A stretch of 64,000 bases of DNA from Rhodocyclaceae bacterium (GCA_025353195.1 JANXRC010000146.1:998-64997), one strand, 5' to 3'; counted from the stretch's first letter, positions 21,037-39,063 are shown. A program made the numbers and translations. Notes: generated by a model from the sequence alone, not told the origin.

Positions 21037-22195
21037 ACTTGCCCAATGGCTGTCCAGGGATTTCCGCGGCTTCAATGTCTTCGGCTATATCACCCTGCGC
21101 GCGGTGCTGGCGACCATGACGGCGCTGGCGATCTCCTTCGTCTTCGGTCCCGCGGTGATCCGCTGGCTGACGGCGAAAAAGATTGGCCAGTCGGTACGCA
21201 GCGACGGCCCGCAGACCCATCTGGTCAAGGCCGGCACGCCGACCATGGGCGGCGCGCTGATTCTGATTTCGCTCGGCGTGTCCACGCTGCTGTGGGCGGA
21301 TCTCTCCAATCGCTTCATCTGGATCGTGCTGATCGTCACCTTCGGCTACGGCGCGGTGGGCTGGGTGGATGACTGGCGCAAGGTGGTCTACCGCAACCCA
21401 GACGGGCTGTCAGCCAGGGTGAAGTTCTTCTGGCAATCGGTCATAGGCCTGATCGCTGCAATCTATCTGGCATTTTCGATTTCGGCGCCCAACAACGAAA
21501 AGGTAGTGCAGCTGTTCTTCCAGTGGGTGTCGAGCGGGTTCACCCTGGAACTGCCGCAGCAGACTGCCCTGATCGTGCCCTTTTTCAAAAGCGTGACCTA
21601 CCCGCTTGGCATGTTCGGCTTCATCCTCCTCACCTACCTGGTGATCGTCGGCAGCAGCAATGCGGTGAACCTGACCGACGGCCTCGATGGTCTGGCCATC
21701 ATGCCGACGGTGCTGGTTGGCGCCGCGCTGGGCATCTTCACCTACGTCGCCGGCAATTCGGTGTTCTCGAAATACCTGCTGCTGCCCTATATTCCGGGTG
21801 CCGGTGAGCTGACGGTGTTCTGCGGAGCGTTGGCCGGTGCCGGCCTCGGCTTCCTGTGGTTCAATGCCTACCCTGCCGAAGTATTCATGGGCGACGTCGG
21901 CGCGCTGGCGCTGGGCGCCGCGCTGGGCGCGGTGGCCGTGGTCGCGCGGCAGGAGATCGTGCTGTTCATAATGGGTGGCGTATTTGTCGCCGAGACGCTG
22001 TCGGTGATGCTCCAGGTCGGCTACTTCAAGTACACCAAGAAGCGTTACGGCACAGGCAGGCGGATTCTCCTGATGGCGCCGCTGCACCATCACTTCGAGC
22101 AGACCGGGTGGAAAGAGACGCAGGTAGTGGTGCGCTTCTGGATCATCACCATCCTGCTGGTGCTGTTCGGCTTGTCGACGCTGAAAATTCGATGA
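21026..22195 (+). CDS. mraY: Phospho-N-acetylmuramoyl-pentapeptide transferase
   Basis: [38 protein letters not shown]. Confidence 0.98.
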
Positions 22196-23676
22196 GCGAA
22201 CTGAACGGCAAACACGTCCTCGTTCTCGGCCTCGGTGAATCGGGGCTGGCCTCCGCGCGCTGGTGCGCGCGGCAGCGCGCGCGGGTGCGGGTGGCCGACA
22301 CGCGTGCGGTGCCGCCGTATCTGGAAGAACTGCGGCGCCGTGTCGCCAGCGCCGACTTCCCGCTTGAATTCATTCCCGGCGAGTTCGACAAGGCGCTGCT
22401 CGACGGCATCGACCTGCTGGTGCTGTCACCGGGCCTCTCGGGCGGCCTGATGGTGGTGATTCATGCCCGCGCCGCTGGGATTCCGGTGCTTGGCGAAGTT
22501 GAATTGTTCGCCCGCGGTTTGCGCAGTCTTGGCTGCAGTGCGCCGGTGCTGGCGATCACCGGCACCAATGGCAAGACCACCACCACCGCGCTGACCGGGC
22601 ATCTGCTGCGCGCCGCGGGCAAGACGGTCGGCGTCGCCGGCAATATCTCCCCCGCGGCGCTGAGTGCGTTGATGGATGCGCTGGATGCGGGTGCCCTGCC
22701 GCAGATCTGGGTATTGGAGCTGTCGAGTTTTCAGCTGGAAACCACCGAGACGCTGAATCCTGTAGCAGCAACGGTGCTAAACATTTCCGACGACCATCTC
22801 GATCGCTACATCGATCTCGACGAGTACGCATCGGCCAAGGCCAGGATCTTTCAAAGCGCTGAGGGTGCGCCGGGCGTGCAGGTGCTCAACCGCGCCGATC
22901 CGCGCGTGTGCCGGATGGTGCTGGCCGATCGTCACATCATCAGCTTCGGCCTCGACGCACCGGCTGGCGAGGACGACTTCGGCCTGCGCCCGCAGCGAGG
23001 CGAGCCGTGGCTGGTACAGGGCGAGCGCTTTCTGCTGCCGGCCTCCGAGTTGCCGCTGGCCGGCTTGCACAATGCGGCCAACGCAATGGCGGCGCTGGCG
23101 CTGTGCAGCGCGCTCGGTTTCGATGCTGAAGCCTTGCTGCCGGCGTTGCGCAGTTTCCGCGGCCTGGCGCACCGGGTCGAGAAGGTGGCCGAGATCGGTG
23201 GTGTGACGTGGTACGACGATTCGAAGGGCACCAATGTCGGCGCCACGGTCGCCGCACTGAATGGCATTGGCGGCCAACTGGCCGCCCTGAATAGTCGCCT
23301 CTCTCCCACGGGGAGGGAGGGTGCGTCATTGACGTCTTGCGATCCGCAGGATCGCAAGATCGTGGTGATCCTCGGCGGCGACGGCAAGGGGCAGGACTTC
23401 ACGCCGCTGAAGGCAGCCGTGGCGAGGCATGCGCGCAGTGCGGTGATGATCGGCCGCGACGGGCCGCTGATCGAGAAGGCCATCGCCGCCGCCGGAGTAG
23501 CGATGGAAAGCGCCAACGATATGGAAGATGCCGTGCGTCGTGCCCGTGCGCTGGCGCGGCCGGGCGATGCCGTGCTGCTGTCACCGGCCTGCGCCAGCTT
23601 CGACATGTTCCGCAATTACGAACATCGGGCGCAGGCCTTCATCGATGCAGTGCGCGCACTGGAGGCCGGGGCGTGA
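22192..23676 (+). CDS. murD: UDP-MurNAc-L-Ala:D-Glu ligase, with an internal ~25-aa insert
   Basis: [52 protein letters not shown]. Confidence 0.97.
23295..23325. repeat. Intragenic palindromic element in murD
   Basis: TCG-CCTCTCTCCC-ACG-GGGAGGGAGG-GTGCG: 10-bp stem with one G:T pair; shares flanks with the element at 38437. Confidence 0.7.
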
Positions 23677-24836
23677 GCCGGGCCTATGCGGCGCCGGCGC
23701 ACCAGGCGCCTGCCGAATTCGACGGCCTCCTGCTATGGCCGGCCATTGGCTTGCTCCTGCTCGGGCTGGTGATGGTGTATTCGTCGTCCATCGCGATGGC
23801 CGAGGGCAGCCGCTTCACCGGCAATCAGCCGGCCTATTTTCTGTATCGGCACGCCGTGTTTCTCGCCATCGGACTGGTGGTGGGTGTGATGGCTTTCCAG
23901 ATTCCGCTGCGGCTGTGGCAGCAGGCAGCGCCCTGGCTGTTTCTGGCCGGAGTCGCCCTGCTGCTGCTGGTGCTGATTCCCCATGTCGGACGTTCGGTGA
24001 ACGGCGCCCAGCGCTGGATCGGCCTCGGCCCGATCAACCTGCAGCCGTCGGAGTTGATGAAGCTGTTCGTGGTGCTTTACGCCGCCGACTACACGACGCG
24101 CAAGCTCGAGGACATGGGCAGTTTCCTGCGCGGCTTCGGGCCGATGGCGCTGGTCATGGTGCTGGTCGGATTCCTGCTGCTGAAGGAGCCGGATTTCGGC
24201 GCCCTGGTGGTCATTCTCTGCATCGCAACCGGCATCCTGTTTCTCGGCGGCATCAACGCGCGGGTGTTTGCTGTTCTGGTGGTGGTCCTGGCGGTCAGCT
24301 TTGTCATCATGATCTGGGTTTCGCCTTATCGGCGCGAGCGCATTTTCGGCTTCATGGATCCCTGGCAGGACTCCTTCGGCAAGGGCTACCAGCTCTCGCA
24401 CGCGCTGATCGCCTTCGGCCGCGGCGAGTGGTTGGGCGTCGGGCTGGGTGCCAGCGTCGAGAAGCTGTTCTATCTGCCCGAAGCGCACACCGACTTCCTG
24501 CTGGCGGTAATCGCCGAAGAGCTCGGCTTTGTCGGCGTCTGTGTCGTGGTCGGGCTCTTCGCCCTGCTGGTGCAGCGCTCCTTCGCCATCGGCCGCCAGG
24601 CCCTGGTGCTCGACCGCGTGCATTCCGGCCTGGTCGCGCAAGGCATCGGCATCTGGCTCGGCGTGCAGGGCTTCATCAACATGGGCGTCAACATGGGCCT
24701 GCTGCCGACCAAGGGCCTGACCCTGCCGCTGATGAGCTTCGGCGGTTCGGGCATCGTCACGAACTGCCTTGCCCTCGGCATCCTGCTGCGTGTTGACTGG
24801 GAAAACAGGCAATTGATGCGAGGGCAGCAGGCATGA
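23673..24836 (+). CDS. ftsW: Peptidoglycan glycosyltransferase FtsW
   Basis: [48 protein letters not shown]. Confidence 0.98.
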
Positions 24837-25891
24837 CGCACACCCTTCTGGTCATGGCGGGCGGTACGGGCGGGCACATCATGCCAGGCTTGGCGGTGGC
24901 CGAACACTTGAAGGCCGAAGGCTGGAAGATTGCCTGGATGGGCAATCCCGATGGCATGGAAGCGCAACTGACCGCCGGGCGTGGCTACGAGATGGCCGGG
25001 GTGCACTTTTCCGCGCTGCGCGGCAAGGGCCTGCTGCGAAAACTGCTGCTGCCCTTCAATCTGTTGCGCGGCTTCAGCCAGGCATGGTCGCAGCTCAAGC
25101 GCATCCAGCCCGATGTGGTGCTCGGCATGGGCGGCTACGTCAGCTTTCCGGGTGGCATGATGGCCGCGCTGCGCGGCATTCCACTGGTGCTGCACGAGCA
25201 GAATTCGGTGGCCGGCCTGTCCAACAGGGTTCTGGCAATGGTCGCCGACCGCATTCTTACCGGCTTTCCCGAGGTTCTGAAGAAAGGCAGCTGGGTCGGC
25301 AATCCGGTGCGCCCCGAAATCGCCGCGTTGCCAGCGCCGACTCTTCGTTATGCTCAGCGCAGCGGACCGCTGCACGTGCTGGTCGTGGGCGGCAGCCTCG
25401 GCGCGCAAGCCTTGAACGAAGTCCTGCCGAAGGCCTTGGCCTTGATCGCGGAACATGAGCGGCCCTCGGTGGTGCATCAGGCCGGCGAGAAGCATCTGCC
25501 GATGCTGAAAAGCCTCTACCTTTCGGCGGGAGTCAAGGCGGACTGCGTGGCCTTCATCAATGACATGGCCGGGGCCTACGCCCGGGCCGATCTGGTGATC
25601 TGTCGCGCCGGCGCGCTGACCGTAGCCGAACTGGCGGCAGCAGGCGTTGCCAGCTTGCTGGTGCCTTTCCCTCACGCGGTGGATGACCACCAGACCTCGA
25701 ACGCGCGCTTCCTAAGCGCTGCCGGGGCGGCGATCTTGCTGCCGCAGGATCAGCTGACGCCGGTGCGGCTGGCCGAACTCAGGAATCTGTCGCGTCAGCA
25801 ACTCACGCAGATGGCCGAGAAGGCGCGCGCGCTGGCGCTTCCCGACGCAACGGCGGTCGTCGCTCAGGCTTGTGCGGAGTTGGCCAAATGA
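24833..25891 (+). CDS. murG: Lipid II N-acetylglucosaminyl transferase
   Basis: GGTGGH, HEQN, GNPVR, GGSLGA, RAGALT, HQTSNA. Confidence 0.98.
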
Positions 25892-25922
25892 AACGCAGGA
25901 TCTCGATGCAAAGGACTTCGCC

Positions 25923-27353
25923 ATGAAGCACAAGGTCAAGCGCATCCATTTCGTCGGCATCGGCGGCTCCGGTATGTCCGGCATCGCTGAAGTTCTGGCG
26001 AACCAGGGTTACCAGGTCAGCGGTTCCGATCTCAGTGAGAGTGCCACCACGCGGCGCCTGGCGGCGCAGGGCATACGCATAGCGATCGGGCATAGCGCGC
26101 AAAACGTCTCGGCCGCCGATGCAGTCGTGGTGTCGACCGCCGTGCACGAAGACAACCCGGAAGTAATCATGGCGCGGGCGCGTCGCGTGCCGGTGGTGCC
26201 CCGGGCGCAGATGCTCGCCGAGTTGATGCGCATCAAGCAGGGCATCGCGATTGCCGGCACCCACGGCAAGACCACGACCACCAGCCTGGTGGCCAGTTGC
26301 CTGGCCGAAGGCGGCCTCGATCCGACCTTCGTCATCGGCGGCCGGTTGAATTCCGCGGGAGCCAACGCCAAGCTGGGCAGCGGTGAATTCCTAGTGGCCG
26401 AGGCCGACGAGTCGGATGCCTCCTTCCTGTTTCTGTCGCCCGTGGTGTCGGTGGTTACCAACATCGATGCCGATCACATGGAAACCTACGGCCATGATTT
26501 CGGCCGCCTGAAACAGGCCTTTGTCGATTTCCTCCACCGCCTGCCGTTCTACGGGGTCGCCGTGGTCTGCGGCGACGATCCGAACGTGCGCGAGATCATT
26601 CCCCGTGTGGCGAAGCAAATAGTCACCTATGGCATCGACAGCGCCGCCAACTTCCGTGCCGAAGACGTGGTGGCGGAGGGCGGCACCATGCGCTTTACAT
26701 GCGTGCGCACCAATGGGGGCGTCACCCGTTTGCCCATCGTGCTCAGTCTGCCGGGACGCCACAATGTCCTGAATGCGCTGGCAGCGATTGCGGTGGCGAC
26801 GGAAGTCGGCGTTGGCGATACGGCGATCATCAGGGCGCTGGCCGAATTCAGGGGCGTCGGCCGGCGCTTCCAGCTTTACGGCGAGATTGGCTGTCCCGCC
26901 GGCGGAACATTCACGCTGGTCGATGATTACGGCCATCATCCGGCGGAAATGGCGGCCACGCTCGCCGCGGCGCGCGGCGCCTTTCCAGGTCGCCGCCTGC
27001 TGCTGGCGTTTCAGCCGCATCGCTACACGCGCACCCGGGACTGCTTCGAGGATTTCGTCAAGGTGCTGTGCGGGGTCGATGCCCTGGTGCTCGGCGAAGT
27101 GTACGCTGCCGGCGAGGCGCCGATCATCGCCGCCGACAGCCGCACGCTGGTGCGCGCTTTGCGCGTTGCCTGCGCGCAAAGCGCCATTCCAGGCATGCAA
27201 GACACCGGCAAGATCGAGCCGATCTTCGTCGAAGACATAGCGGACATGCCGGCAGCCATTCTGGCCGCGGCGCGCGATGGCGACGTGGTGATCACCATGG
27301 GCGCCGGTTCCATCGGCGGAGTGCCGACGCGCTTGAGCGAAGGTTCGCCATGA
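25923..27353 (+). CDS. murC: UDP-N-acetylmuramate:L-alanine ligase
   Basis: [39 protein letters not shown]. Confidence 0.98.
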
Positions 27354-28273
27354 TTGAACTCGTGCGCGGCGCGCTGCGGGAATTCGAGCCGATGGCGAGC
27401 CATGTCTCGTGGCGTGCCGGCGGCGCCGTGGCTCGCGCATTCTTCCCGGCCGATCTGGCCGATCTCGCCGCCTTCCTGCATCGCCTGCGCCGCGATGAGC
27501 CGCTGCTGCTGGTGGGCCTTGGCAGCAATCTGCTGGTGCGTGACGGCGGCTTCGACGGCACCGCGATCTTCACCCATGGCGTGCTGGATGTCCTGCGCCG
27601 CGAAGCGGACGGCAGCTTTTTCGCCGAAGCCGGTGTCGCCTCGCCGAAGCTGGCGCGTTTTGTCGGCAACCAGTCCTGCGCCGAGGCCGAGTTTCTGGCG
27701 GGCATCCCCGGCACCGTCGGCGGCGCGCTGGCGATGAACGCCGGCTGCCACGGCGGCGAGACCTGGCGCTATGTCGACCGGGTGCTGATGCTCGATCGCA
27801 ATGGCGAGCAGATCATCCGCGGTCCGGAAGACTTTGCCATCGGCTACCGCCATGTCGGCCTCAAACAGGCCAGCGATGAAATTTTTGCCGGCGCCTGGTT
27901 TCGCTTTCCGGCCGGCGATGTCGAGGTGGCCCGGGCGAACGTGCGCCAACTGCTGGAGCGGCGCAGTGCCACCCAGCCGCTGCAGTTGGCCAATGCCGGC
28001 TCGGTGTTCAGGAACCCGCCGGGCGACCACGCTGCACGCCTGATCGAGGCCGCCGGCCTCAAGGGCACACAGATCGATGGCGCGCAGGTTTCCGAAAAGC
28101 ATGCGAATTTCATCGTTAATCCCAAGGGCGAGGCGACGGCTAGTGCGATAGAAATGCTAATCGGCCGGATTCGGGCGGAAGTCGAGCAAAAGTTTGGCGT
28201 TTCCCTGGTGTGCGAGGTGCGCATTGTGGGCGAAATAAACAGTCGGTCCGGGCGGGACGGAGAAGGAGTTTGA
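27350..28273 (+). CDS. murB: UDP-N-acetylenolpyruvoylglucosamine reductase
   Basis: [35 protein letters not shown]. Confidence 0.97.
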
Positions 28274-29181
28274 TGGATTTCGGCAAGGTGGCGGTGATGA
28301 TGGGCGGCAAGTCGGCCGAGCGCGAGGTATCGCTGAAAAGCGGCACCGCGGTGCTCGCCGCGCTGCGCTCAAGCGGCGTCGACGCGCACTGCTTTGATCC
28401 GCAGGACCAGGCGCTCGAGGCGCTGCATGCCGATGGCTTCAAGCGCGTCTTCATCGCCCTGCATGGACGTGGCGGCGAAGATGGCACGCTGCAGGGCGCA
28501 CTTGATCTGCTGGCGATTCCCTATACCGGCAGCGGCGTGCTGGCGTCGGCTCTGGCGATGGACAAGTGGCGCTCCAAGCTGGTCTGGCAGGGCATGGGTT
28601 TGCCGGTGCCGGATTACGTCGCGCTCGATGCCACCAGCGATTTTTCAGCCGTCGAGGCGCGCCTCGGTCTGCCGTTGTTCGTCAAGCCGGCCAATGAGGG
28701 CTCCAGCATCGGCATCAGCAAGGTCAAGCAGGCGGGTGGTCTGCGCGCCGCTTACGAACTGGCAGCCCGTTTCGACACCTGCGTGATCGCGGAAAAGTAT
28801 CTGGGCGGCGGCGAATATACCGTGGGCATTGTTGCCGGCGTGGCCTTGCCGGTGATCCGCATCGTGCCGGCGACCGAGTTCTACGATTACGACGCCAAGT
28901 ATCTGCGCGATGACACCGAATACCGCATTCCTAGCGGCCTCGGCGAGCAGCGCGAAGCCGAGATGCGCGATCTGGCGCTGCGCGCCTTTGCCGTGCTGGG
29001 CGGGCGCGGCTGGGGACGGATGGACCTGATGCTGGATGCCGCAGGCCGTTCCTATTGCCTCGAAGCGAATACATCGCCCGGCATGACCGACCACTCGCTG
29101 GTGCCGATGGCGGCCCGCGCGGCCGGCATTCCGTTTGCGCAACTGGTGCTTAGATTGCTCGAAGAGGCCCGCTATGGCTAA
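28273..29181 (+). CDS. ddl: D-alanine-D-alanine ligase
   Basis: [42 protein letters not shown]. Confidence 0.98.
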
Positions 29182-29980
29182 GGCGCGGGGAAACTCGGCC
29201 GGCAAGAGCCGGGGCCACAGCCGGGTCGAACACGGCAGCGGCGGCGGCTTCTGGGATCGGCCGGTGTTGATCAACCTGCTGGCCGACCTGCTGTTGCTGG
29301 CCGGCGGCGGATTGCTGGCATGGGCCGGCGCGCTGGCCGTGCAGCGTCTGCCGGTGTTCCCGCTGACCGAATTGGTGGTGGCGAAGCCGCTGGACCAGGT
29401 CTCGCGGACGCAGATCGAGCAAACGGCGCGCAACGCCCTGTCAGGGAACTTCTTCACGGTGAATCTGGAGGCTGCCCAGGCGGCCTTCGAGCGCATGCCC
29501 TGGGTGCGCTCGGCCTCCTTGCGCCGCCACTGGCCCGACGGCATCGAACTGGAACTCGAAGAGCATCACGCCGTCGCCCGCTGGACCCCGCTTGAAGGCG
29601 AGTCGCGTCTGGTCAGCACGCGGGGCGAGGTGTTCCTGGCCTCGACGCGAGAATCACTGCCGGTCTTCGTCGGTCCCGAGGGTTCGGCGCCGCGGCTGCT
29701 GGCCCGCTACCAGGAGTTCAACGACGGTCTGGCCGCCATTGGACGCAAGCAGGTCGCCATTCATCTATCGGCGCGCGAGGCATGGCAACTCAAGCTGGAC
29801 GACGGCGTGGTCCTCGAATTGGGCCGCGACGAGCCTAGGCATCCGCTGGCGGAGCGACTCAATCGCTTCACGACCTACTACGCGACTGTGCGCAGTTCCG
29901 CGAAAAGTCGTCTGCAAGCCATCGGCGTGGTGGACATGCGTTACCCGAACGGATTCGCCCTCAGGGCGAGCAAAAGCTGA
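29174..29980 (+). CDS. ftsQ: Cell division protein FtsQ
   Basis: One TM helix; POTRA domain ([14 protein letters not shown]); C-terminal DMRYPNGFA. Confidence 0.95.
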
Positions 29981-31212
29981 TGGCCAAAGAAGCCAAACGT
30001 GACCTGATCGTCGGCCTCGACATCGGCACTTCCAAGATTGTTGCCATCGTCGGCGAGCTGGATGCCGAGGGTCGGCTGGGCATCCTCGGGCTCGGCACCC
30101 AGGAGTCGAGCGGCCTGAAACGCGGCATGGTCATCAACATCGAGGCCACCGTGAATTCGATTTCCAGGGCGATTGCCGAAGTCGAGATGATGGCGGGCTG
30201 CAAGGTGCGCGAGGTGTATACCGGAATCGCCGGCAGCCACATCAAGAGCAAGGATTCCTCGGGCATGGCCGTGGTGCGGGACAAGGAAGTCACCCAGTTC
30301 GACGTCGAGCGGGCCATCGAGGCGGCGAATGCAACGTCGATTTCGGCCGATGACCAGATTCTGCACACGCTGGTGCAGGAGTTCATCGTCGACGGCCAGG
30401 ACGGCGTCAAGGAACCGATCGGCATGGACGCCAAACGGCTTGACGTGAGGGTGCATCTGGTCACCGGCGCGGTGACCGCAGTGCAGAACATTGTCAAGTG
30501 CGTGCATCGCTGCGGCCTCGAAGTGGCCGATTTGGTGCTGCAACCGCTGGCATCGGGATATGCCGTACTGACCGAGGACGAAAAGGATGTCGGCGTCTGC
30601 CTGGTCGATATCGGCGGCGGCACCACCGACGTCGCGGTATTCGTGCACGGCGCGATCCGCCACACCGCGGTCATTCCGATTGCGGGCGACCAGCTGACCA
30701 ATGACATCGCCATTGCCTTGCGTACCTCGACCCAGGATGCCGAGGACATCAAGATACGTTACGGCGTCGCGCTGCAACAGCTGGCCAATCCGCAAGACAT
30801 GATCGAAGTGCCCGGCGTTGGCGACCGTCCGGCGACCCAGCTTTCGCGCCAGACCCTGGCCGGTTTCATCCAGCCGCGGGTCGAGGAAATCTTCCAGAAG
30901 GTGCAGGAGGAACTGCACCGCAGCGGCAAGGAGCGACTGCTGCGCGCCGGTATCGTGCTGACTGGCGGCGCGGCGCAGATGCCCGGCATGGCTGATCTGG
31001 GCGAGGAGATTTTCCACAATACCGTGAAGCTGTCGATGCCGCATTACGACGGCACCTTGCGCGACTACGTACGCAATCCGCGCTACTCCACGGCGATGGG
31101 CTTGTTGTTGGAAGGGGTGGCGCAGCGCCACCGTGGCATGACGGTCCAAAGCCCGAAGAACTTCGGGCAGGTTCTGGCCCGCATGCGGGCGTGGTTCACC
31201 AAAAATTTTTGA
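29980..31212 (+). CDS. ftsA: Cell division protein FtsA
   Basis: GLDIGTSK, DIGGGTT, VLTGGAA, YSTAMGLL; amphipathic C-terminus. Confidence 0.98.
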   Translation: MAKEAKRDLIVGLDIGTSKIVAIVGELDAEGRLGILGLGTQESSGLKRGMVINIEATVNSISRAIAEVEMMAGCKVREVYTGIAGSHIKSKDSSGMAVVRDKEVTQFDVERAIEAANATSISADDQILHTLVQEFIVDGQDGVKEPIGMDAKRLDVRVHLVTGAVTAVQNIVKCVHRCGLEVADLVLQPLASGYAVLTEDEKDVGVCLVDIGGGTTDVAVFVHGAIRHTAVIPIAGDQLTNDIAIALRTSTQDAEDIKIRYGVALQQLANPQDMIEVPGVGDRPATQLSRQTLAGFIQPRVEEIFQKVQEELHRSGKERLLRAGIVLTGGAAQMPGMADLGEEIFHNTVKLSMPHYDGTLRDYVRNPRYSTAMGLLLEGVAQRHRGMTVQSPKNFGQVLARMRAWFTKNF

Positions 31213-31239
31213 TGCAGTCGGTCTTTTCAGGAGGTGAAA

Positions 31240-32427
31240 ATGTTTGAACTTGAGGAAGTAATCACGGCGGAAGCGGAGACGGGATCGACGGTCATCAAAG
31301 TCGTCGGCGTCGGTGGCGCAGGCGGCAATGCGGTCGAGCACATGATTCGCGAAGGCGTCGGCGGCGTCGAATTCATCTGCTGCAACACCGATGCGCAGGC
31401 GCTGAACAAAAGCACCGCCCACGTCAAGCTCCAACTGGGCCCCGGCCTCGGCGCCGGCGGCAAGCCGGAAAAGGCCCGAGAACTGGCGGTGCTCGATCGC
31501 GAACGGATCGCCGACGCGCTGCGGGGTGCGCACATGGTCTTCATTACCGCCGGCATGGGCGGGGGCACCGGCACCGGTGCCGGTCCGGTAATCGCCGAAG
31601 TTGCGCGCGAACTGGGCATCCTCACCGTTGCGGTGGTGACGAAACCCTTCGAATACGAAGGCAAGCGCAAACGCCTGGCGGAAGAAGGCGTGGCCGAACT
31701 CGCTCTCCACGTCGATTCGCTGATCATCATCCTCAACGAGAAACTCGAAGAGGTCCTCGGCGACGAGGTCACCATGCTGGAAGCCTTCCAGGCCGCTGAC
31801 AACGTGCTGCGCAACGCGGTGGGCGGCATCGCTGAAATCATCAACGTGCCGGGTCTGGTCAATGTCGACTTCGAAGACGTGCGCACCGTGATGGGCGAAA
31901 TGGGCAAGGCGATGATGGGCTCCGCGGTCGCCGCCGGAGTCGATCGCGCCCGTGTCGCTGCCGAAGAGGCGGTGGCCAGCCCGTTGCTGGAGGGCATCGA
32001 GCTTTCCGGCGCGCGCGGCGTGCTGGTGAACATTACTGCCAGCACCACGCTCGGCCTCAAGGAATACAAGGAGGTGATGAAGACCATCCGTCAATACACG
32101 GCGCCCGAGGCAACCGTGATCTGCGGCGCCGTGTTCGACGAATCCATGGAAGACCAGTTGCGCGTTACCGTGGTCGCCACCGGGCTCGGCATCGTCGCGT
32201 CACGCGAGGCAGCCAAGCCGAGCATGCGCGTGGTGGAGACGATTGGCCTGCGCACCGGAACCGACAACCTGCAGGTGTTCGATGCCGGGATCGGCCAGGT
32301 CGACCTGTCCAGTGTCACCAGCAGTGCGCGCGGCTCCATGCCACGTAACGCCCAGGCGGATGCCATGGCGGCATCCGGAGTGGACAAGTACGATATCCCC
32401 GCCTTCCTGCGCCGCCAATCCGACTGA
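31240..32427 (+). CDS. ftsZ: Cell division protein FtsZ
   Basis: VGVGGAGGNA, NTDAQAL, GMGGGTGTG, NVDFEDV, DIPAFLR. AGGAGG SD favours ATG 31240. Confidence 0.99.
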   Translation: MFELEEVITAEAETGSTVIKVVGVGGAGGNAVEHMIREGVGGVEFICCNTDAQALNKSTAHVKLQLGPGLGAGGKPEKARELAVLDRERIADALRGAHMVFITAGMGGGTGTGAGPVIAEVARELGILTVAVVTKPFEYEGKRKRLAEEGVAELALHVDSLIIILNEKLEEVLGDEVTMLEAFQAADNVLRNAVGGIAEIINVPGLVNVDFEDVRTVMGEMGKAMMGSAVAAGVDRARVAAEEAVASPLLEGIELSGARGVLVNITASTTLGLKEYKEVMKTIRQYTAPEATVICGAVFDESMEDQLRVTVVATGLGIVASREAAKPSMRVVETIGLRTGTDNLQVFDAGIGQVDLSSVTSSARGSMPRNAQADAMAASGVDKYDIPAFLRRQSD

Positions 32428-32443
32428 ATGGCCGGCCGCAGCA

Positions 32444-32477
32444 CCGGTCCGGCGGGCGCCTCCTCCCGCCGGACCGG
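32444..32477. terminator. 13-bp perfect hairpin after ftsZ (no U-tract)
   Basis: CCGGTCCGGCGGG, 8-nt loop, CCCGCCGGACCGG. Confidence 0.5.
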
Positions 32478-32484
32478 GCTTGCG

Positions 32485-32493
32485 TGCTAGAAT
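32485..32493 (+). promoter_or_regulatory. Extended -10 promoter for lpxC
   Basis: TGcTAGAAT 36 nt upstream of the lpxC ATG. Confidence 0.6.
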
Positions 32494-32529
32494 TATTGCT
32501 TCGCATCATTCCATTTACGTCGCTGCCCG

Positions 32530-33444
32530 ATGCTTCGCCAACGCACCCTCAAATCAGTCGTCAAGGCCACCGGCGTGGGTCTCCACTCCGGCGTCAAGGT
32601 GTCGCTCATGCTGCGCCCGGCTCAGCCCAACACGGGTGTGGTGTTTCGCCGCGTTGATCTGGCGCCACCGGTCGATCTAAAGGCAGACCCGTTCCGCGTC
32701 GGCGACACCCGGCTGGCGTCCTGTCTGGAACAGGACGGCGTCAAGGTAGCTACGGTCGAGCACCTGATGTCGGCGCTGGCGGGACTCGGCATCGACAATA
32801 TCTATGTTGATGTCGATGCGGCCGAGTTGCCGATCATGGATGGATCAGCCGCACCTTTCGTGTTTTTGCTCCAGTCGGCCGGCATCGAGGAACAGAACGC
32901 CGCCAAGAAATTCCTTCGCGTGACGAAAACCGTGGAGGTCAAGGAGGGCGACAAATGGGCCAAGTTGTCGCCCTACGACGGATTCAGCCTCGACTTTGCC
33001 ATAGTCTTCAACCACCCGGCCGTAGACCGCGCCGCCTCGCGTGCGCACATTGATTTTGCCGATCAGTCCTACTTGCGTGAAGTGGCCCGCGCCCGCACCT
33101 TCGGTTTCATGCAGGATGTCGAGACCCTGCGTGACGAGGGTTTGGCGCTGGGCGGCAGCCTGGAAAACGCCATCGTTATGGATGAGTACCGGGTCTTGAA
33201 CAGCGACGGACTGCGTTACGCGGACGAATTCGTCAAGCACAAGATCCTCGATGCCATCGGCGATCTCTATCTGGCCGGACATCCCCTGCTGGGGGCATTT
33301 TCGGCCCACAAGTCGGGCCACGCGCTGAACAATCTGCTGTTGCGCAAGCTGCTTGCCGATGCCTCCGCCTGGGAACTGGTCAGTTTCCAGCGCGCCGAGG
33401 AAGCGCCGGGAACCATCGCCCGGCTGTATCCCAAACTCGCCTAG
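32530..33444 (+). CDS. lpxC: UDP-3-O-acyl-GlcNAc deacetylase
   Basis: QRTLK..V...[36 protein letters not shown]. Confidence 0.99.
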
Positions 33445-33453
33445 ACCTGAAGC

Positions 33454-33636
33454 ATGCTGCTGCTCAGGATCGTCGGCGTACTCACGGCGATCACCATTGG
33501 CAGCGGGATCGTTGCCTGGCTGTTCACCCGTGACCGGCGCTACCTCGTCCTGTCAGGCCGCGTCGCCAAGGCTGCCTTGATCTTCTCGCTGATTGTTCTG
33601 GTACTGATGGCAGCCGAGCGCCTGATCATTCTTTGA
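33454..33636 (+). CDS. Small two-TM hypothetical protein (60 aa)
   Basis: Two hydrophobic helices around a basic loop (TRDRRY); typical codon usage; 9 nt after lpxC. Confidence 0.7.
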   Translation: MLLLRIVGVLTAITIGSGIVAWLFTRDRRYLVLSGRVAKAALIFSLIVLVLMAAERLIIL

Positions 33637-34063
33637 CACTGCGCAAGAGGCGTTCCAGCGCGTTCTTGAGGGGCGACTCGTTGGGTAGCCCCTGCGCCAG
33701 TGCAGTGAGTCCTTGCTTCTGTTTGACACCCGGCGGAGTGGGCCTTTCGCGTTGAGGTTGCGGCGGAGACGGGTTACGGGCTTGCACTCGGACCTCGATT
33801 TGAGTAACCTTCACCTCCTTGTTTGATAAATCGTCGGCGAGACGCGGTCCGAATTGACGGATCTTCGCCGCGACTGCGCCGTTGGCGGCGTGGATAAAAA
33901 GTTTCCCCAGGCGGAAGTTGGCTACCCGGGCATGAGGCCTTAGCGCCTCCGGCAAAGCGGCTTCCAGAAGGCGCTGGAATTGGAGTAGACGTTGGGCGTG
34001 GGCCGCAAGCCGCGCCATGCTGTCACCGGAGGCAAGGTGTTCCTGGAGACTGCGCGATGTCAT
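33626..34063 (-). CDS. dciA: DciA (DUF721) replicative-helicase loader-like protein
   Basis: AANGAVAAKIRQ motif, IEVRVQ, C-terminal LKNALERLL; conserved position between lpxC and secA. Confidence 0.8.
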   Translation of the reverse strand: MTSRSLQEHLASGDSMARLAAHAQRLLQFQRLLEAALPEALRPHARVANFRLGKLFIHAANGAVAAKIRQFGPRLADDLSNKEVKVTQIEVRVQARNPSPPQPQRERPTPPGVKQKQGLTALAQGLPNESPLKNALERLLRSVKE

Positions 34064-34091
34064 CAAAAACGAACCTGAAGGGAGGGAAGGG

Positions 34092-35039
34092 ATGCATATT
34101 ATTCTCGTCTCTGACCGGCTGGCAACCGCAAGAAGCATTACGCTGACCTGGCGCCATGCGTTTCTTTTTGCGGGGGCGCTGTTTAGCTCGGTCCTTGTGC
34201 TGTCATCGCTGTTTTCCTATGTCACCGTCCGCCACGCCGCAGAAATCCGCCTGCCCTTCCTGCAGGATCTGGTGCGCGCGGTGAATGCCGAAGAAACCCG
34301 GCGTTCCAAGGACTTTGTCCGCGAAAACCTCAATGCCATGGCGGTCAAGCTGGGCGAGATGCAGGCGCAACTGATGCGCCTCGACACCATAGGCGAGCGG
34401 CTCGCAGGTATGGCCGGTGTCAAGCCCCAGGACCTCAAGGCGTTCGAGTCGAAAGCCGATGGTCGTGGCGGGCCGCTGGTGCTGCCTGAGGCGATGTCTT
34501 CAACCGAACTGCAGCGTGCGGTCGACGACCTGGCGCATCAGGTCGAAGCGAAATCCGACGCGATTTCCATGATTGAGTCCCAGATGCTGGAGGACCGGAT
34601 CAGAAAGAACCTGCTTCCCACCAGCCTGCCGGTCGAGGCGCAATGGAACGCTTCAAGCTATGGCTGGCGCGTCGATCCCTTCACCGGTGAACGGGCGATG
34701 CACGAGGGTGTCGATTTCGTGGCGACTCCCGGTACCAGTATTCATGCTGCGGCAGCCGGAGTGGTGATCAGCGCCGAGCGCCATCCTGACTATGGAAACA
34801 TGGTGGAAATTGACCACGGCAAGGACTTGACCACGCGCTACGCCCATACCTCAAGGATCCTGGTCAAGGTGGGGCAGCTGGTCAAACGCGGTCAGAAGAT
34901 CGCCGAGGTGGGTTCTACCGGACGTTCCACCGGGCCGCACCTGCATTTTGAAGTACGCATCCACGGTCTGGCGCAAAATCCGGATCGCTTCCTGCGCATG
35001 GCGCAGGCGACCCAGCGGCCGATCGCACAGCGCAACTGA
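34092..35039 (+). CDS. M23 family metallopeptidase
   Basis: N-terminal TM helix and coiled coil; HEGVDF (HxxxD), YAH, STGPHLHFEV. Confidence 0.93.
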   Translation: MHIILVSDRLATARSITLTWRHAFLFAGALFSSVLVLSSLFSYVTVRHAAEIRLPFLQDLVRAVNAEETRRSKDFVRENLNAMAVKLGEMQAQLMRLDTIGERLAGMAGVKPQDLKAFESKADGRGGPLVLPEAMSSTELQRAVDDLAHQVEAKSDAISMIESQMLEDRIRKNLLPTSLPVEAQWNASSYGWRVDPFTGERAMHEGVDFVATPGTSIHAAAAGVVISAERHPDYGNMVEIDHGKDLTTRYAHTSRILVKVGQLVKRGQKIAEVGSTGRSTGPHLHFEVRIHGLAQNPDRFLRMAQATQRPIAQRN

Positions 35040-35052
35040 GCCACCGAGTGCC

Positions 35053-35084
35053 CGGGGAGGGCCGTCCTCCCCGCGTGCTAAAAT
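35053..35084 (+). promoter_or_regulatory. Hairpin followed by an extended -10 promoter for secA
   Basis: CGGGGAGG-GCCGT-CCTCCCCG, then TGcTAAAAT (35076-35084). Confidence 0.55.
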
Positions 35085-35126
35085 TGCCGCTTTGCTTTTC
35101 CCGCCCAATATGCGGTCGAGCACCCC

Positions 35127-35186
35127 ATGATCACCGGTTTTAGCTCCAGCGTAACGCCCGCTTGCGCAGGCATTGGCTTGCTCTGA
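35127..35186 (+). other. Candidate 19-codon uORF in frame with secA (MITGFSSSVTPACAGIGLL)
   Basis: ATG 35127 to TGA 35184-35186; begins with the same MITGF as SecA. Translation is not demonstrated. Confidence 0.4.
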
Positions 35187-35210
35187 AGCCCGTTTCTGAA
35201 CGACAAAAAT

Positions 35211-37937
<2,727 letters not shown>

Positions 37938-37938
37938 G

Positions 37939-39063
37939 GTGAGCCAGGAGCAGTGCCCGACCCTGACCGAGGATGCAAGCAGTCGCAATGCGGCCGTCTT
38001 CATCCTCGACCAGACGCGGCTGCCGCGCGAAGCGGTCATGCTGCGGCTGACCACAATGGAAGACGCAGCCCATGCCATTCGCGTCATGCAGGTGCGCGGC
38101 GCGCCCCTGATCGGCGCCACGGCAGCCTATGGTGTCGCGCTCGGCCTGGCGGACGATGTCAGCGATGCGCGCTTGCAGCATGTGATCGAAACGCTTGCCG
38201 CGACACGACCGACTGCCGTCAATCTGCATTGGGCGCTGGCGCGCATGCGTCGCGTGCTCCAAGAGTCGGCACTGGCGACACGGCGGGACATGGCCTGGCA
38301 GGAAGCGCGTGCCATCGCCGAGGAAGACAAAGAGGCAAACGCCGCAATTGGAAAGCACGGACTGCCCCTGATCGAGCGCATGCGGGACGCGAAGGTTCGG
38401 TCCAACCATTCCCTTGCGCAGGAAGGGCTGACTTCATCGCCTCCCCCGCTTGGCGGGGGAGGTCGGGAGGGGGTGCGCAGTTATTGTGACGGTGACGCAG
38501 TCAACGTCATGACCCACTGCAATGCCGGCCGTCTGGCGACCGTCGCGCATGGCACGGCCCTGGCGCCGGTCTATGCCGCGCATGGCGCCGGCTTGCCGGT
38601 GCACGTCTGGGTTTCCGAAACGCGACCGCGCAACCAGGGGCTGCTGACTGCCTGGGAACTGCGCGAGGCGGGCGTGCCGCATACGTTGCTGGCGGACAAT
38701 GCCGCCGGCCTGCTGTTGATGCAGGGCCAGGTCGATCTGGTGATCGTCGGCGCCGATCGCATTGCCGCCAACGGCGACACGGCGAACAAAGTCGGCACCT
38801 ATCTCAAGGCGCTTGCGGCGCGCGAGCATGGCGTGCCGTTTTATGTCGCCGCGCCAGTGTCGACCATCGATTTTGCCTGTTCCTCGGGGTCCGCGATCCC
38901 GATTGAAGAACGCGCTGCAGAGGAATTCGGTGCTTCAGTTGCCAACATGGATACGCCGGTGGTCAATCCGGCTTTCGACGTGACGCCGGCAGCTCTTGTC
39001 AGCGGTATCATTTCCGAGCGCGGCATCGCTTTGCCCGGCGCGCTGAGAAAGTGGAACTCATGA
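37939..39063 (+). CDS. mtnA: Methylthioribose-1-phosphate isomerase, with an internal ~30-aa insert
   Basis: VRGAPLIG, TRPTAVNL, THCNAG, ETRPRNQG, GADRIAANGDTANKVGTY, NPAFDVTP. Confidence 0.95.
   Translation: MSQEQCPTLTEDASSRNAAVFILDQTRLPREAVMLRLTTMEDAAHAIRVMQVRGAPLIGATAAYGVALGLADDVSDARLQHVIETLAATRPTAVNLHWALARMRRVLQESALATRRDMAWQEARAIAEEDKEANAAIGKHGLPLIERMRDAKVRSNHSLAQEGLTSSPPPLGGGGREGVRSYCDGDAVNVMTHCNAGRLATVAHGTALAPVYAAHGAGLPVHVWVSETRPRNQGLLTAWELREAGVPHTLLADNAAGLLLMQGQVDLVIVGADRIAANGDTANKVGTYLKALAAREHGVPFYVAAPVSTIDFACSSGSAIPIEERAAEEFGASVANMDTPVVNPAFDVTPAALVSGIISERGIALPGALRKWNS
38437..38477. repeat. Intragenic palindromic element in mtnA
   Basis: TCG-CCTCCCCCGC-TTG-GCGGGGGAGG-TCGGGAGGGGGTGCG: perfect 10-bp stem. 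Confidence 0.75.

Follow-up and report, generated by a model that had tools for sequence, protein, structure and literature searches.

Two in-frame inserts in murD and mtnA

How did two genes on one stretch of bacterial DNA come to carry similar extra segments within their reading frames? The window, the whole 64,000-nt stretch analysed here, comes from the 3.4-Mb genome of a Rhodocyclaceae bacterium of the genus Sulfuritalea (a metagenome assembly of 289 contigs, 99.5% complete). A reading made from the sequence alone had assigned the inserts in murD and mtnA to one repeat family that colonises coding sequences and is spread in trans. Inspection of positions 23295-23325 and 38437-38477 located both elements as described, each on the coding strand. 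They share a common layout, in which a small GC hairpin is followed by a TCGCC tag, a 10-bp pyrimidine/purine hairpin and a G-rich end. When folded as single-stranded DNA, both copies form the main hairpin and each forms a second GC hairpin upstream (z = -3.4 and -2.7).

The murD gene (UDP-N-acetylmuramoylalanine--D-glutamate ligase; 22192..23676, + strand) is intact, and its product contains the Pfam domains MurD-like_N, Mur_ligase_M and Mur_ligase_C. It is the single murD of the source genome (494-aa match at G000:C201:23189-24670), as the remaining Mur matches are paralogues (E ~1e-16). The insert was delimited by DNA comparison of empty alleles (L007-L010) with filled ones (L002, L003, L005, L012, L013). 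Relative to the closest empty alleles, L007-L010, 78 nt at 23275..23352 (+) stand in place of 6 nt (CTGGGG), a net gain of 24 codons. Residues 364-386 are unpartnered in PDB 7sy9, and the gap falls between its adjacent residues 344 and 345. The upstream GC hairpin SL2 (GGCGGCC-AACT-GGCCGCC; 23269..23286, +; from sequence and DNA fold) lies at the same position as the SL2 of other copies, and its left arm is made from host Gly-Gly codons. The core at 23295..23325 (+; TCGCCTCTCTCCCACGGGGAGGGAGGGTGCG) consists of the tag TCGCC, the hairpin CCTCTCTCCC/ACG/GGGAGGGAGG and GTGCG, a shortened form of the G-rich end. Its 10-bp arms form nine Watson-Crick pairs and one T.G pair around the loop ACG.

The mtnA gene (methylthioribose-1-phosphate isomerase; 37939..39063, +) is likewise intact; its product matches Pfam IF-2B (2.6e-66), with 1t9k, 6a34 and 2yrf as the best PDB matches. 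Comparison of filled type-A alleles (window, L021-26, L031) with empty ones (L033, L038-40, L043, L046 onward) placed an insert of about 99 nt (33 codons), missing from the empty alleles, at 38386..38484 (+), with boundaries accurate to a few nucleotides. Here, residues 147-185 are unpartnered and the gap falls between adjacent residues 147 and 148 of PDB 1t9k. SL2 (CCCTT-GCGCAGG-AAGGG; 38411..38427, +) is followed by the linker CTGACTTCA and then by the core at 38437..38477 (+; TCGCCTCCCCCGCTTGGCGGGGGAGGTCGGGAGGGGGTGCG), comprising the TCGCC tag, the hairpin CCTCCCCCGC/TTG/GCGGGGGAGG with a perfect 10-bp stem and the loop TTG, a TC spacer and the G-rich tail GGGAGGGGGTGCG.

Both inserts lie in loops, immediately before the C-terminal domain or the first strand of that domain, and are predicted to be disordered. 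For mtnA, residues 160-182 have an AlphaFold2 pLDDT below 50 and form a modelled coil that links helix 112-155 to strand 188-192. Translation uses a different frame in each copy, yet GREG is encoded in both proteins (SPTGREGAS in MurD, GGGGREGVR in MtnA), as had been noticed from the sequence. The view that the likeness lies at the DNA level was borne out by these differing frames and by the mtnA site of other species, which carries the family on the opposite strand and there encodes an unrelated peptide, GNPPNPLSGKGGD.

A family of palindromic repeats in Sulfuritalea genomes

The repeat unit runs, in order, from a short GC hairpin through a CTGA(A/C)nnnn-type linker and an unpaired tag, (G)T(C/A)(A/G)CC, to the main hairpin and a tail. 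The main hairpin has 9-11 bp, with only C/T in the left arm and only G/A in the right arm, and loops of 3-4 nt; the G-rich tail partly repeats the right arm. Among 28 aligned copies the tags were GTCA (15), GTAG (5), GTCG (3), ATCG or ATCA (4) and GTGA (1), as counted by our own reading of alignment A2 rather than by a tool.

The sequence-only reading had proposed scanning the genome with a covariance model for further copies, and these were found far above background. The covariance model R1 gave about 30 matches in the source genome, both inserts included, at E<=0.02, where E-values of R1 and of the second model, R2, are rough and match counts have the number of scored candidates as their ceiling. 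R1 found 27-121 matches in each of 19 Sulfuritalea genomes and 0 in 12 genomes that belong to the same order but to other families. Across the taxonomic family the repeats are patchy, occurring in 22 of 80 genera. The stems covary: changes on both sides were seen in 30 cells vs 9.5 in shuffles, and 0 of 500 shuffles reached this value.

With R1 the mtnA copy scored 34.6 bits (window 38431-38475) and the murD copy 26.9 bits (C201:24286-24328, i.e. window 23289-23331). R2, which was trained only on the DUF559-flanking units of related genomes, recovered the mtnA copy (32.1 bits) and most other copies of the source genome (20-44 bits). In the same scan it did not recover the murD copy of the window. 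This copy is a shortened and weak member of the family; the full GGGAGGGAGGG tail is kept in its orthologues L002 and L013, which score 27.6 and 36.4 bits with R2.

The inserts could in principle be artefacts of assembly or binning in a 289-contig metagenome assembly, or a chance likeness of two low-complexity loops. Indeed, the heptamers common to both are not over-represented (TCGCCTC 12 vs 16.6 expected; GGGTGCG 16 vs 21.6 expected), so the case against chance comes from the whole-element model and not from the two heptamers alone. The models separate the genus from the 12 outgroup genomes. Moreover, the same inserts occupy the same sites in further independent assemblies, seven for mtnA (same orientation) and five for murD, and contigs built independently by a different assembler from four metagenome runs span the mtnA insert without gaps. 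We regard this explanation as refuted, its residual probability being negligible.

The proposed colonisation of coding sequences holds in that in-frame copies do occur within genes, but the family is mainly intergenic and only about three of the roughly 30 copies are clearly intragenic. About 90% of the copies in the source genome are intergenic, mostly in short gaps between genes. At least three are intragenic and in frame, namely those in murD, in mtnA and in an exonuclease-domain (RNase_T-domain) protein at C287:17757.

In several intergenic copies the G-rich tail lies at the position expected for a ribosome-binding site.

Empty, filled and rearranged alleles

Empty-site orthologues, predicted by the sequence-only reading, are present for both genes. 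Of 18 same-genus loci, 11 have no insert at the murD site, and the outgroup L020 has none either; six carry inserts, of varying lengths (window, L002, L003, L005, L012, L013). L013 carries a tandem duplicate, L012 a nested copy and L006 a short remnant; all murD-site alleles are in frame. At the mtnA site some genomes have no insert; eight carry one on the + strand and 13 carry one of a different subfamily on the - strand, and the model confirms these strands. A forward (L022) and a reverse (L028) mtnA allele share 96-98% identity over 4 kb of flank. For two well-understood enzymes there are thus natural allelic series at single loops, with empty, forward, reverse, duplicated and nested forms among them.

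We found no clear target-site duplication: CCAGTTGGC/CCAATTGGC flank the murD core of L002 and GCACTTAAG/GCACTAAG flank the DUF559 cassette of G042, with no consistent duplication among them. Nor was a recent insertion seen, as the intragenic copies are common to several species. Those in murD and mtnA are long-standing alleles that species have in common and did not arise by recent jumps. An intragenic copy would be expected to survive only if its length were a multiple of three, if it lay in a tolerant surface loop and if it brought no stop codon. Arms made up only of pyrimidines on one side and only of purines on the other leave no stop codon possible, in any frame and on either strand.

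These alleles show that selfish DNA can add 24-53 residues to an essential cell-wall ligase, MurD, and be tolerated. Comparable behaviour was reportedly described by Ogata et al. in 2000 for Rickettsia palindromic elements, selfish palindromic DNA said to sit in frame in functional, even essential, genes at surface-exposed parts of the proteins. The copies in murD, mtnA and the RNase_T-domain protein match this behaviour; the comparison concerns behaviour and not sequence kinship, for the Rickettsia elements belong to a different bacterial group and are longer (~100-150 bp). We know of no DUF559 cassette for them.

Comparison with REP elements and other small repeats

Few unexplained features of bacterial genomes are as common as small palindromic repeats, and many families have no known mobilising enzyme. 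That REP-like elements occur within genes is already known: REPs encoding 20-30 (up to 82) residues lie inside known genes of several species, including Thauera of the Rhodocyclales (Di Nocera et al. 2013, PMC3733652). The same paper describes CGTC REPs without a dedicated transposase, and does not cover Sulfuritalea or a link to DUF559.

In several respects our family resembles the REPs and BIMEs associated with RAYTs (PMC2817692, PMC3733652). It consists of short GC-rich palindromes with an unpaired 5' tag, is present in tens to hundreds of mostly intergenic copies, and often forms mosaics with other small hairpins. As in REPtrons, a candidate enzyme gene lies between two inverted copies, each gene matching its own repeat subtype. 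In REP/RAYT systems the bracketed gene encodes an HUH Y1 transposase, whereas here it encodes a DUF559/Vsr-like PD-(D/E)XK endonuclease; GTCA or GTCG replaces GTAG as the usual tag, and a long G-rich tail follows the hairpin. With about 30 copies, roughly 90% of them intergenic, the family agrees with the GTAG superfamily in size (a 20-40-bp palindrome in many, mainly extragenic copies), but its commonest tag, GTCA, falls outside the variants GYAG, GYRG, GTRG and GTMG. CGTC families 1-4 have a CGTC/TGTC/CCTC tag, an 8-9-bp stem with A/T at the first two positions, a 4-5-nt loop and a CCA tail. Some Sulfuritalea copies do read CGTC or TGTC; the family nevertheless does not match these four, since its stems start with C-G, its loops have 3-4 nt and its tail is a run of 10-14 nt of G. 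With MITEs it shares small size, non-coding character, presumed movement in trans and occasional in-frame copies (PMC10969869), but we found none of the 15-30-bp terminal inverted repeats that would match it to an insertion sequence.

Could a RAYT-type (IS200-like Y1) transposase encoded in the genome be moving these repeats as ordinary REPs? The source genome has two Y1_Tnp genes, and GTAGCC, that is, a GTAG tag ahead of the hairpin, occurs in 5 of 28 copies. Both Y1 genes, however, lie between inverted repeats of an unrelated kind, GGGGACAG... and GGGGTCAG..., which fit the GGGGWSAS TIR type (PMC3733652). The clustering around RAYT genes that the earlier reading had considered was absent: scanning the 23 Y1_Tnp genes of the genus with R1 gave 0 matches within 1.5 kb of any of them and no RAYT gene flanked by the same repeats. 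In addition, 8 of 20 Sulfuritalea genomes lack a Y1 gene, and four of these (G005, G012, G013, G017; 90-99% complete) carry 35-80 copies. With Y1 genes unlinked to the repeat and absent from several copy-rich genomes, RAYT as the mobiliser is largely refuted and highly improbable.

Association with stand-alone DUF559 genes

The sequence-only reading had also named similar hairpins as flanking DUF559-type endonuclease genes. This proved correct for relatives, where inverted hairpin-plus-tail units lie on both sides of stand-alone DUF559 genes, but not for the source genome, in which, at 99.5% completeness, no DUF559 gene was found. Such a gene occurs in only 6 of 20 Sulfuritalea genomes. At E<=1, R1 found 44 matches in 34 kb around 12 DUF559 genes vs 0 in 68 kb around the 23 Y1 transposase genes; in Sulfuritalea, 14 of 14 matches lay no farther than about 170 nt from a DUF559 gene. 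Each flanking unit has a C/T arm, a short loop, a G/A arm, a 2-nt spacer and a G-rich tail in which the right arm is repeated; the two units point towards one another, with the tails adjoining the gene. In G042, G008, G017 and others the gene is flanked by units of its own subtype. The complete genome G042 has two DUF559 genes, each with the subtype of one of two dispersed sub-families; its DUF559 protein has 3hrl as the closest solved structure (E = 2e-26).

The association extends to copy number. At least five R2 copies were present in 14 of 23 DUF559-positive vs 6 of 58 DUF559-negative genomes (p = 7.5e-6). No such association was seen for R1-type multi-copy families (3 of 23 vs 9 of 58, p = 1), and most copies of the source genome are of this type. 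DUF559 is a Vsr-like PD-(D/E)XK endonuclease of the Vsr/VsrA clade (PMC3424549). From the bracketing and the co-occurrence we infer that it is likely the mobilising enzyme of these repeats. The account that we consider probable runs as follows. Each insert is an in-frame copy of a small, non-coding palindrome of the REP/MITE-like type, and the source-genome family belongs to a wider hairpin-plus-tail group that brackets DUF559 genes in related genomes. A DUF559-type nuclease acting in trans on the hairpin would have spread the elements, as RAYT is thought to do for REPs. In the source genome, which lacks DUF559, the copies would now be orphans. More tentatively, stand-alone DUF559 genes and their bracketing units might be the autonomous partners of a widespread REP-like class, a second kind of REPtron.

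Alternatively, though we consider this unlikely, DUF559 may be a selfish, homing-type gene that lands at hairpins or brings its own pair, the solo copies having spread by a different route, such as recombination or repair by the host, slippage of replication at hairpins or a nuclease other than DUF559. The bracketing could come from the gene inserting into hairpins rather than moving them, and the clade contains a proven homing endonuclease, I-Bth0305I (PMC3239194, PMC3424549). The sporadic occurrence of DUF559 in the genus and the R1-type families that thrive without it fit this alternative as well. So does the hyuB/acd junction, which holds four unrelated small palindromic elements in different species; permissive sites are thus occupied repeatedly, regardless of the enzyme involved. 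Whole DUF559 cassettes are insertions relative to the source genome at hyuB/acd and at hypD/hypE, and both of these sites, the two that allowed comparison, are there a bare 4-9-nt spacer with no hairpin for homing, which speaks against landing at hairpins. Co-occurrence and subtype matching are expected of a mobiliser, although a homing gene needing many targets would also show both. I-Bth0305I itself drives the mobility of its own gene, but sits in a phage group I intron (PMC3239194, PMC3424549), and Vsr/VsrA acts in T:G mismatch repair (PMC12907096). For neither have flanking hairpin repeats been reported.

The link of a palindromic repeat to DUF559 appears to be undescribed so far. It connects, statistically and structurally, a repeat group with very common, uncharacterised stand-alone endonuclease genes. 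If DUF559 is indeed the mobiliser, it would give a function to common small DUF559 proteins and a mobilising enzyme to RAYT-less palindromic repeats, including those in frame in essential genes, with the HUH transposase replaced by a nuclease of the restriction-endonuclease fold. As cognate gene-repeat pairs are defined, a direct bench test is possible. In a published screen, DUF559 genes were 14-fold enriched among predicted inversion targets (PMC9881135), which the flanking inverted hairpins could explain.

Conservation of the intragenic hairpins

Finally, the intragenic hairpins may have been domesticated, for example as mRNA structures slowing inter-domain translation or as binding sites for protein or nucleic acid. 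The shared placement of the murD and mtnA inserts just before the C-terminal domain or its first strand would suit such a role. Among eight mtnA alleles the stems of both hairpins are nearly invariant at third codon positions (~1 of 12 variable), whereas 230 of 319 (72%) vary in the flanks. SL2 is nearly invariant among the eight species, third positions included, while the loop varies freely, and reverse-type alleles show a compensatory T-A to C-G stem change. Against domestication, many species have no insert at either site, one site holds opposite orientations and different sub-families, and the stem has decayed in the reverse-type alleles L029, L032, L035, L036 and L044. Gene conversion from other genomic copies, or self-templated repair of the hairpin, could also conserve the stems. 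We consider domestication unlikely. The conserved stems in mtnA nevertheless suggest that the hairpin is under selection or undergoes gene conversion, rather than being junk that is simply tolerated.

Two inserts of one hairpin repeat family

The two inserts lie exactly where the sequence-only reading had placed them. On the coding strand of murD, positions 23295-23325 read TCGCC-TCTCTCCC-ACG-GGGAGGGAGG-GTGCG, and on that of mtnA, positions 38437-38477 read TCGCC-TCCCCCGC-TTG-GCGGGGGAGG-TC-GGGAGGGGG-TGCG. Each copy is preceded on the + strand by a GC hairpin, GGCGGCC-AACT-GGCCGCC at 23269-23286 with the linker CTGAATAG in murD, and CCCTT-GCGCAGG-AAGGG at 38411-38427 with the linker CTGACTTCA in mtnA. 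Folding as single-stranded DNA gave two hairpins for each copy, with z = -3.4 for murD and -2.7 for mtnA. The copies are translated in different frames and both yield a GREG peptide, as that reading had stated. The heptamers TCGCCTC and GGGTGCG that it noted are likewise shared, but they are not over-represented in the window and therefore have no evidential value alone.

Scanning the full assembly by structure (3.4 Mb in 289 contigs, 62.5% G+C) resulted in 28 more units laid out like the inserts. The tag (G)T(C/A)(A/G)CC comes first; a hairpin of 9-11 bp follows, its left arm made up only of pyrimidines and its right arm only of purines, with a loop of 3-4 nt, and after two spacer bases comes a G-rich tail. 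Most of them have, in addition, a GAAC or TGAC box and the GC hairpin on the upstream side, and some contain a third hairpin, whose loop GGGCCGCCCCAAG is conserved. The units are thus mosaics, and in this make-up they resemble BIMEs. Comparison of the stems showed covariation, in that both sides had changed in 30 cells, against 9.5 after shuffling, and none of 500 shuffles was as high. A covariance model of the family (R1) gave about 30 matches in the genome at E<=0.02, so that the single family proposed earlier does have further copies; mtnA scored 34.6 and murD 26.9 bits. The murD and mtnA copies are two certain members of one repeat family.

R1 also matched 27-121 times per genome in 19 genomes of Sulfuritalea, the genus to which the window belongs, and not at all in 12 genomes from other families of the order. 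Within the taxonomic family the spread is patchy, with a match in 22 of 80 genera and many copies in about a dozen. No Rfam family was found for the element, either in the window at the gathering threshold or in 18 copies at E<=1, and a literature search on Sulfuritalea repeats found nothing. One repeat copy adjoins a match to anti-hemB (RF02837; 64.9 bits, gathering score 49.5) at C221:38309-38397 of the same assembly (locus L119:10-98).

Filled and empty alleles

Alleles without the insert were found at both murD and mtnA, in line with the mobile element that had been proposed. The murD site is empty in 11 of 18 same-genus loci, where it reads GG-LG-RK or GG-xND-RK, and in the out-of-genus locus L020. 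It is filled at one common point, with inserts of unequal length, in the window and in the relatives' loci L002, L003, L005, L012 and L013; L006 holds the short piece QLANAGKRNE alone. The full tail is retained in L002 and L013 and lost from the window copy. A direct repeat matching at 11 of 12 positions lies within 23251-23292 of the window, with GCCGCACTGAAT in the host sequence (AALN) and GCCGCCCTGAAT in the insert. Since GCCGCCCTGAAT aligns with the GCCGC-TGAAC box of other copies (for example on contigs C192 and C148), it belongs to the element, and its likeness to the target GCCGCACTGAAT may be microhomology or chance.

Two murD loci are more complex. In L013 (1065-1358) the element is present in tandem duplicate; a 35-nt 3′ flank, CTCCAATTCTGCCGAACGGCAATAAGAATGATCGC, is repeated exactly and the two hairpins are strongly unlike, a combination that simple duplication does not explain. 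In L012 (2512-2808), as in the mtnA locus L034 (about 1861-2139), the loop of the main hairpin contains an extra block of ~72 nt. The two blocks are mutual reverse complements, and their orientation to the host element is alike. With its two additional hairpins, GCGGAGCACTGCTCCGC and GCCGGCTGTGCAAAGCCGGC, and partial matches in the window's own genome on contigs C142, C121 and C38, the block appears to be another small repeat, nested within the first.

The mtnA site is empty in distant relatives and in five Sulfuritalea genomes (…IERIRGDIDAVNVMTHCNAG). Eight genomes, including that of the window, carry a forward insert of 99 nt on the + strand, and 13 carry a reverse insert of 72 nt. Reverse-complemented, the latter is a canonical unit of another subfamily, composed of GCAGGC-GAA-GCCTGC, CTGACTTTG, TCGCC, CCCCTTTCC… and GGGGGGATTGCC, and R1 scores of 40-54 bits on the minus strand confirmed its orientation. 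Because the hairpin sequences of the two forms differ, the reverse form represents a second insertion at mtnA rather than an inversion. Across 4 kb of flank, identity between the loci L022 (forward) and L028 (reverse) is 96-98%, and it falls solely near the insert, within about 200 nt. Such near-identity around opposite inserts suggests that the two forms are old alleles passed between lineages by homologous recombination. A count of gains and losses on the MtnA tree was dropped, as 21 of 40 branches were open and the alleles apparently recombine. The mtnA insert is covered gap-free by contigs from four sediment metagenome runs, which were built with another assembler; our within-population check rested on contigs, which display the filled form and from which its absence is not detectable. 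The insertion alleles are real.

Position of the copies in genomes and proteins

The family had been suggested to colonise coding sequences. Copies inside genes do occur, but only roughly three of about 30 are of this kind, and most are intergenic. In-gene copies were called from frame and composition analysis together with Pfam. The third clear in-frame copy (C287:17757-17798, reverse), reading GNPPGPLSGKGGD, lies in an RNase_T exonuclease-domain protein of 761 residues. N-terminal extensions of an FMN_bind protein and an M16 peptidase are two possible further cases, for which the choice of start codon decides. All-pyrimidine and all-purine arms cannot contain stop codons in any frame on either strand, so that the element fits into reading frames unusually well.

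Several copies fill gaps of a few bases between the stop codon of one gene and the start codon of the next. In at least five (C31:2214, C69:13471, C161:3882, C226:22111 and C114:28413) the tail ends 6-8 nt upstream of the start codon, and judging from this spacing the G-rich tail is probably the ribosome-binding site of the next gene.

Aligned with Thermotoga MtnA (1t9k), MtnA residues 147-185 are unpartnered, placed between residues 147 and 148 of the chain; MurD residues 364-386 are placed between residues 344 and 345 of the 7sy9 chain. In an AlphaFold2 model of MtnA based on 58 sequences (pLDDT 87 and pTM 0.86 overall), residues 160-182 are coil with pLDDT <50; helix 112-155 lies before this segment and the opening strand of the C-terminal domain after it. 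Alignments and model show the inserts in predicted disordered loops. Apart from the inserts, murD and mtnA are intact, and the genome has no second murD.

Across the eight forward mtnA alleles, third-codon positions vary at 230 of 319 sites in the flanks compared to about 1 of 12 in the two stems, which indicates conservation beyond the need of the protein. Five different loop sequences occur among these alleles, and towards its ends the insert is variable in protein sequence as well. Reverse-type alleles display a compensatory T-A to C-G stem change in some species and stem decay in others. The conservation of the mtnA hairpin suggests that either its DNA or RNA structure is under selection or gene conversion corrects it.

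Relation to RAYT transposases and DUF559 nucleases

Clustering around RAYT (REP-associated Y1 transposase) genes, one of the possibilities raised by the sequence-only reading, was absent. None of 23 same-genus Y1 genes has an R1 match within 1.5 kb and 8 of 20 genomes are devoid of Y1 genes, and we rejected this link. The two Y1_Tnp proteins of the window's own genome (~230-250 aa) are IS200-like. Their genes, L101:1501-1830 (contig C200) and L102:1501-1827 (C164), are flanked by inverted repeats, AAAGGGGTCAGAGTCATTT… and GGGGACAGACCACGGTTTTC…, of the GGGGWSAS type known for TIR-associated tyrosine transposases (PMC3733652) and unrelated to the hairpin family. Judged by their tests, the family belongs neither to the RAYT-linked REPs nor to the four described CGTC families. 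No enzyme gene was found between close inverted pairs, where the complete genome G002 has only dprA/smg and an aminotransferase. In-gene GTAG and CGTC REPs are documented in several species including Thauera, and passages of the same paper document in-gene RPEs in Rickettsia (PMC3733652); our core finding is thus of a known sort.

The sequence-only reading also named similar hairpins flanking genes for DUF559, a Vsr-like PD-(D/E)XK endonuclease. This holds in relatives, but the window's own genome has no DUF559 gene. Small stand-alone DUF559 genes in related genera have hairpin-plus-tail units directly on both sides, pointing toward each other with the tails adjoining the gene. At six Sulfuritalea DUF559 loci, all 14 R1 matches lie within about 170 nt of the gene; the large multidomain DUF559-containing proteins at L167 and L168 have no matching units. 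As in the five intergenic copies, the tail in the DUF559 cassettes probably acts as ribosome-binding site, both for DUF559 itself and for the downstream gene. The closest solved structure to one bracketed protein is 3hrl, which places it in the Vsr/DUF559 clade of PD-(D/E)XK nucleases, a clade that also contains a homing endonuclease (PMC3424549, PMC3239194). Bracketing by inverted units fits a programmed-inversion screen in which genes with inverted repeats showed a 14-fold enrichment of DUF559 (PMC9881135). We found no paper on DUF559 with REP or flanking hairpin repeats.

A second model, R2, was trained solely on 22 DUF559-flanking units from other genomes and applied to the window, to 18 short loci that contain own-genome copies and to eight relatives' loci. 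It scored the window's mtnA copy at 32.1 bits, most other own-genome copies at 20-44 bits, and the murD orthologues L013 and L002 at 36.4 and 27.6 bits; the window's shortened murD copy gave no match. Across 81 genomes from 80 genera, at least five R2-type copies were present in 14 of 23 DUF559-positive and 6 of 58 DUF559-negative genomes (Fisher test, p = 7.5e-6). With the same cut-off, R1-type copies showed no association (3 of 23 versus 9 of 58, p = 1), so the link is confined to the DUF559-flanking type. In the complete genome G042, 10 of 14 retrieved dispersed copies are of the subtype flanking one DUF559 gene (CTCCCCTCTCCCGC…GGGGGAGAGGG), and the other four are of the subtype of a second (CCCTCTCCCCGC…GGGG(A/T)GAGGGG). 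Such subtype matching of gene and repeats is what tied RAYTs to REPs. Units of this kind are robustly linked, physically and statistically, to stand-alone DUF559 genes in relatives, which raises the finding beyond ordinary repeat annotation.

The lack of correlation between R1-type families and DUF559 argues against the nuclease as mobiliser, as does the finding of no clear target-site duplication; the DUF559 gene might itself be selfish, landing in such hairpins or carrying them along. We nevertheless infer that the units are spread by a DUF559 nuclease; the window's own genome would have lost the gene, and its copies would be orphans.

Relative to the window's own genome, the DUF559 cassettes are inserted DNA. 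G008 and G017 have 540-600 nt between hyuB and acd, against a 4-nt spacer in that genome, and between hypD and hypE, G042 has a cassette versus a gap of at most 9 nt without a hairpin. The hyuB/acd junction (L172-L186; C46:31486-31494 in the own genome) is an insertion hot spot of small palindromic elements: the 4-nt gap is empty in five species, two have the DUF559 cassette, four an unrelated double-hairpin element of ~330 nt, and two a palindrome of ~115-125 nt that differs in sequence (CACAGAGGACACAGAG… in G005, CACGGAGGGCACGGAG… in G003). As a means of separating homing from transposition this comparison was uninformative, other species holding unrelated palindromic elements. At L158 (G050:C1:2064096-2067416), a DUF559 match lies within a long open frame amid arrays of at least 12 tandem hairpin-plus-tail units.
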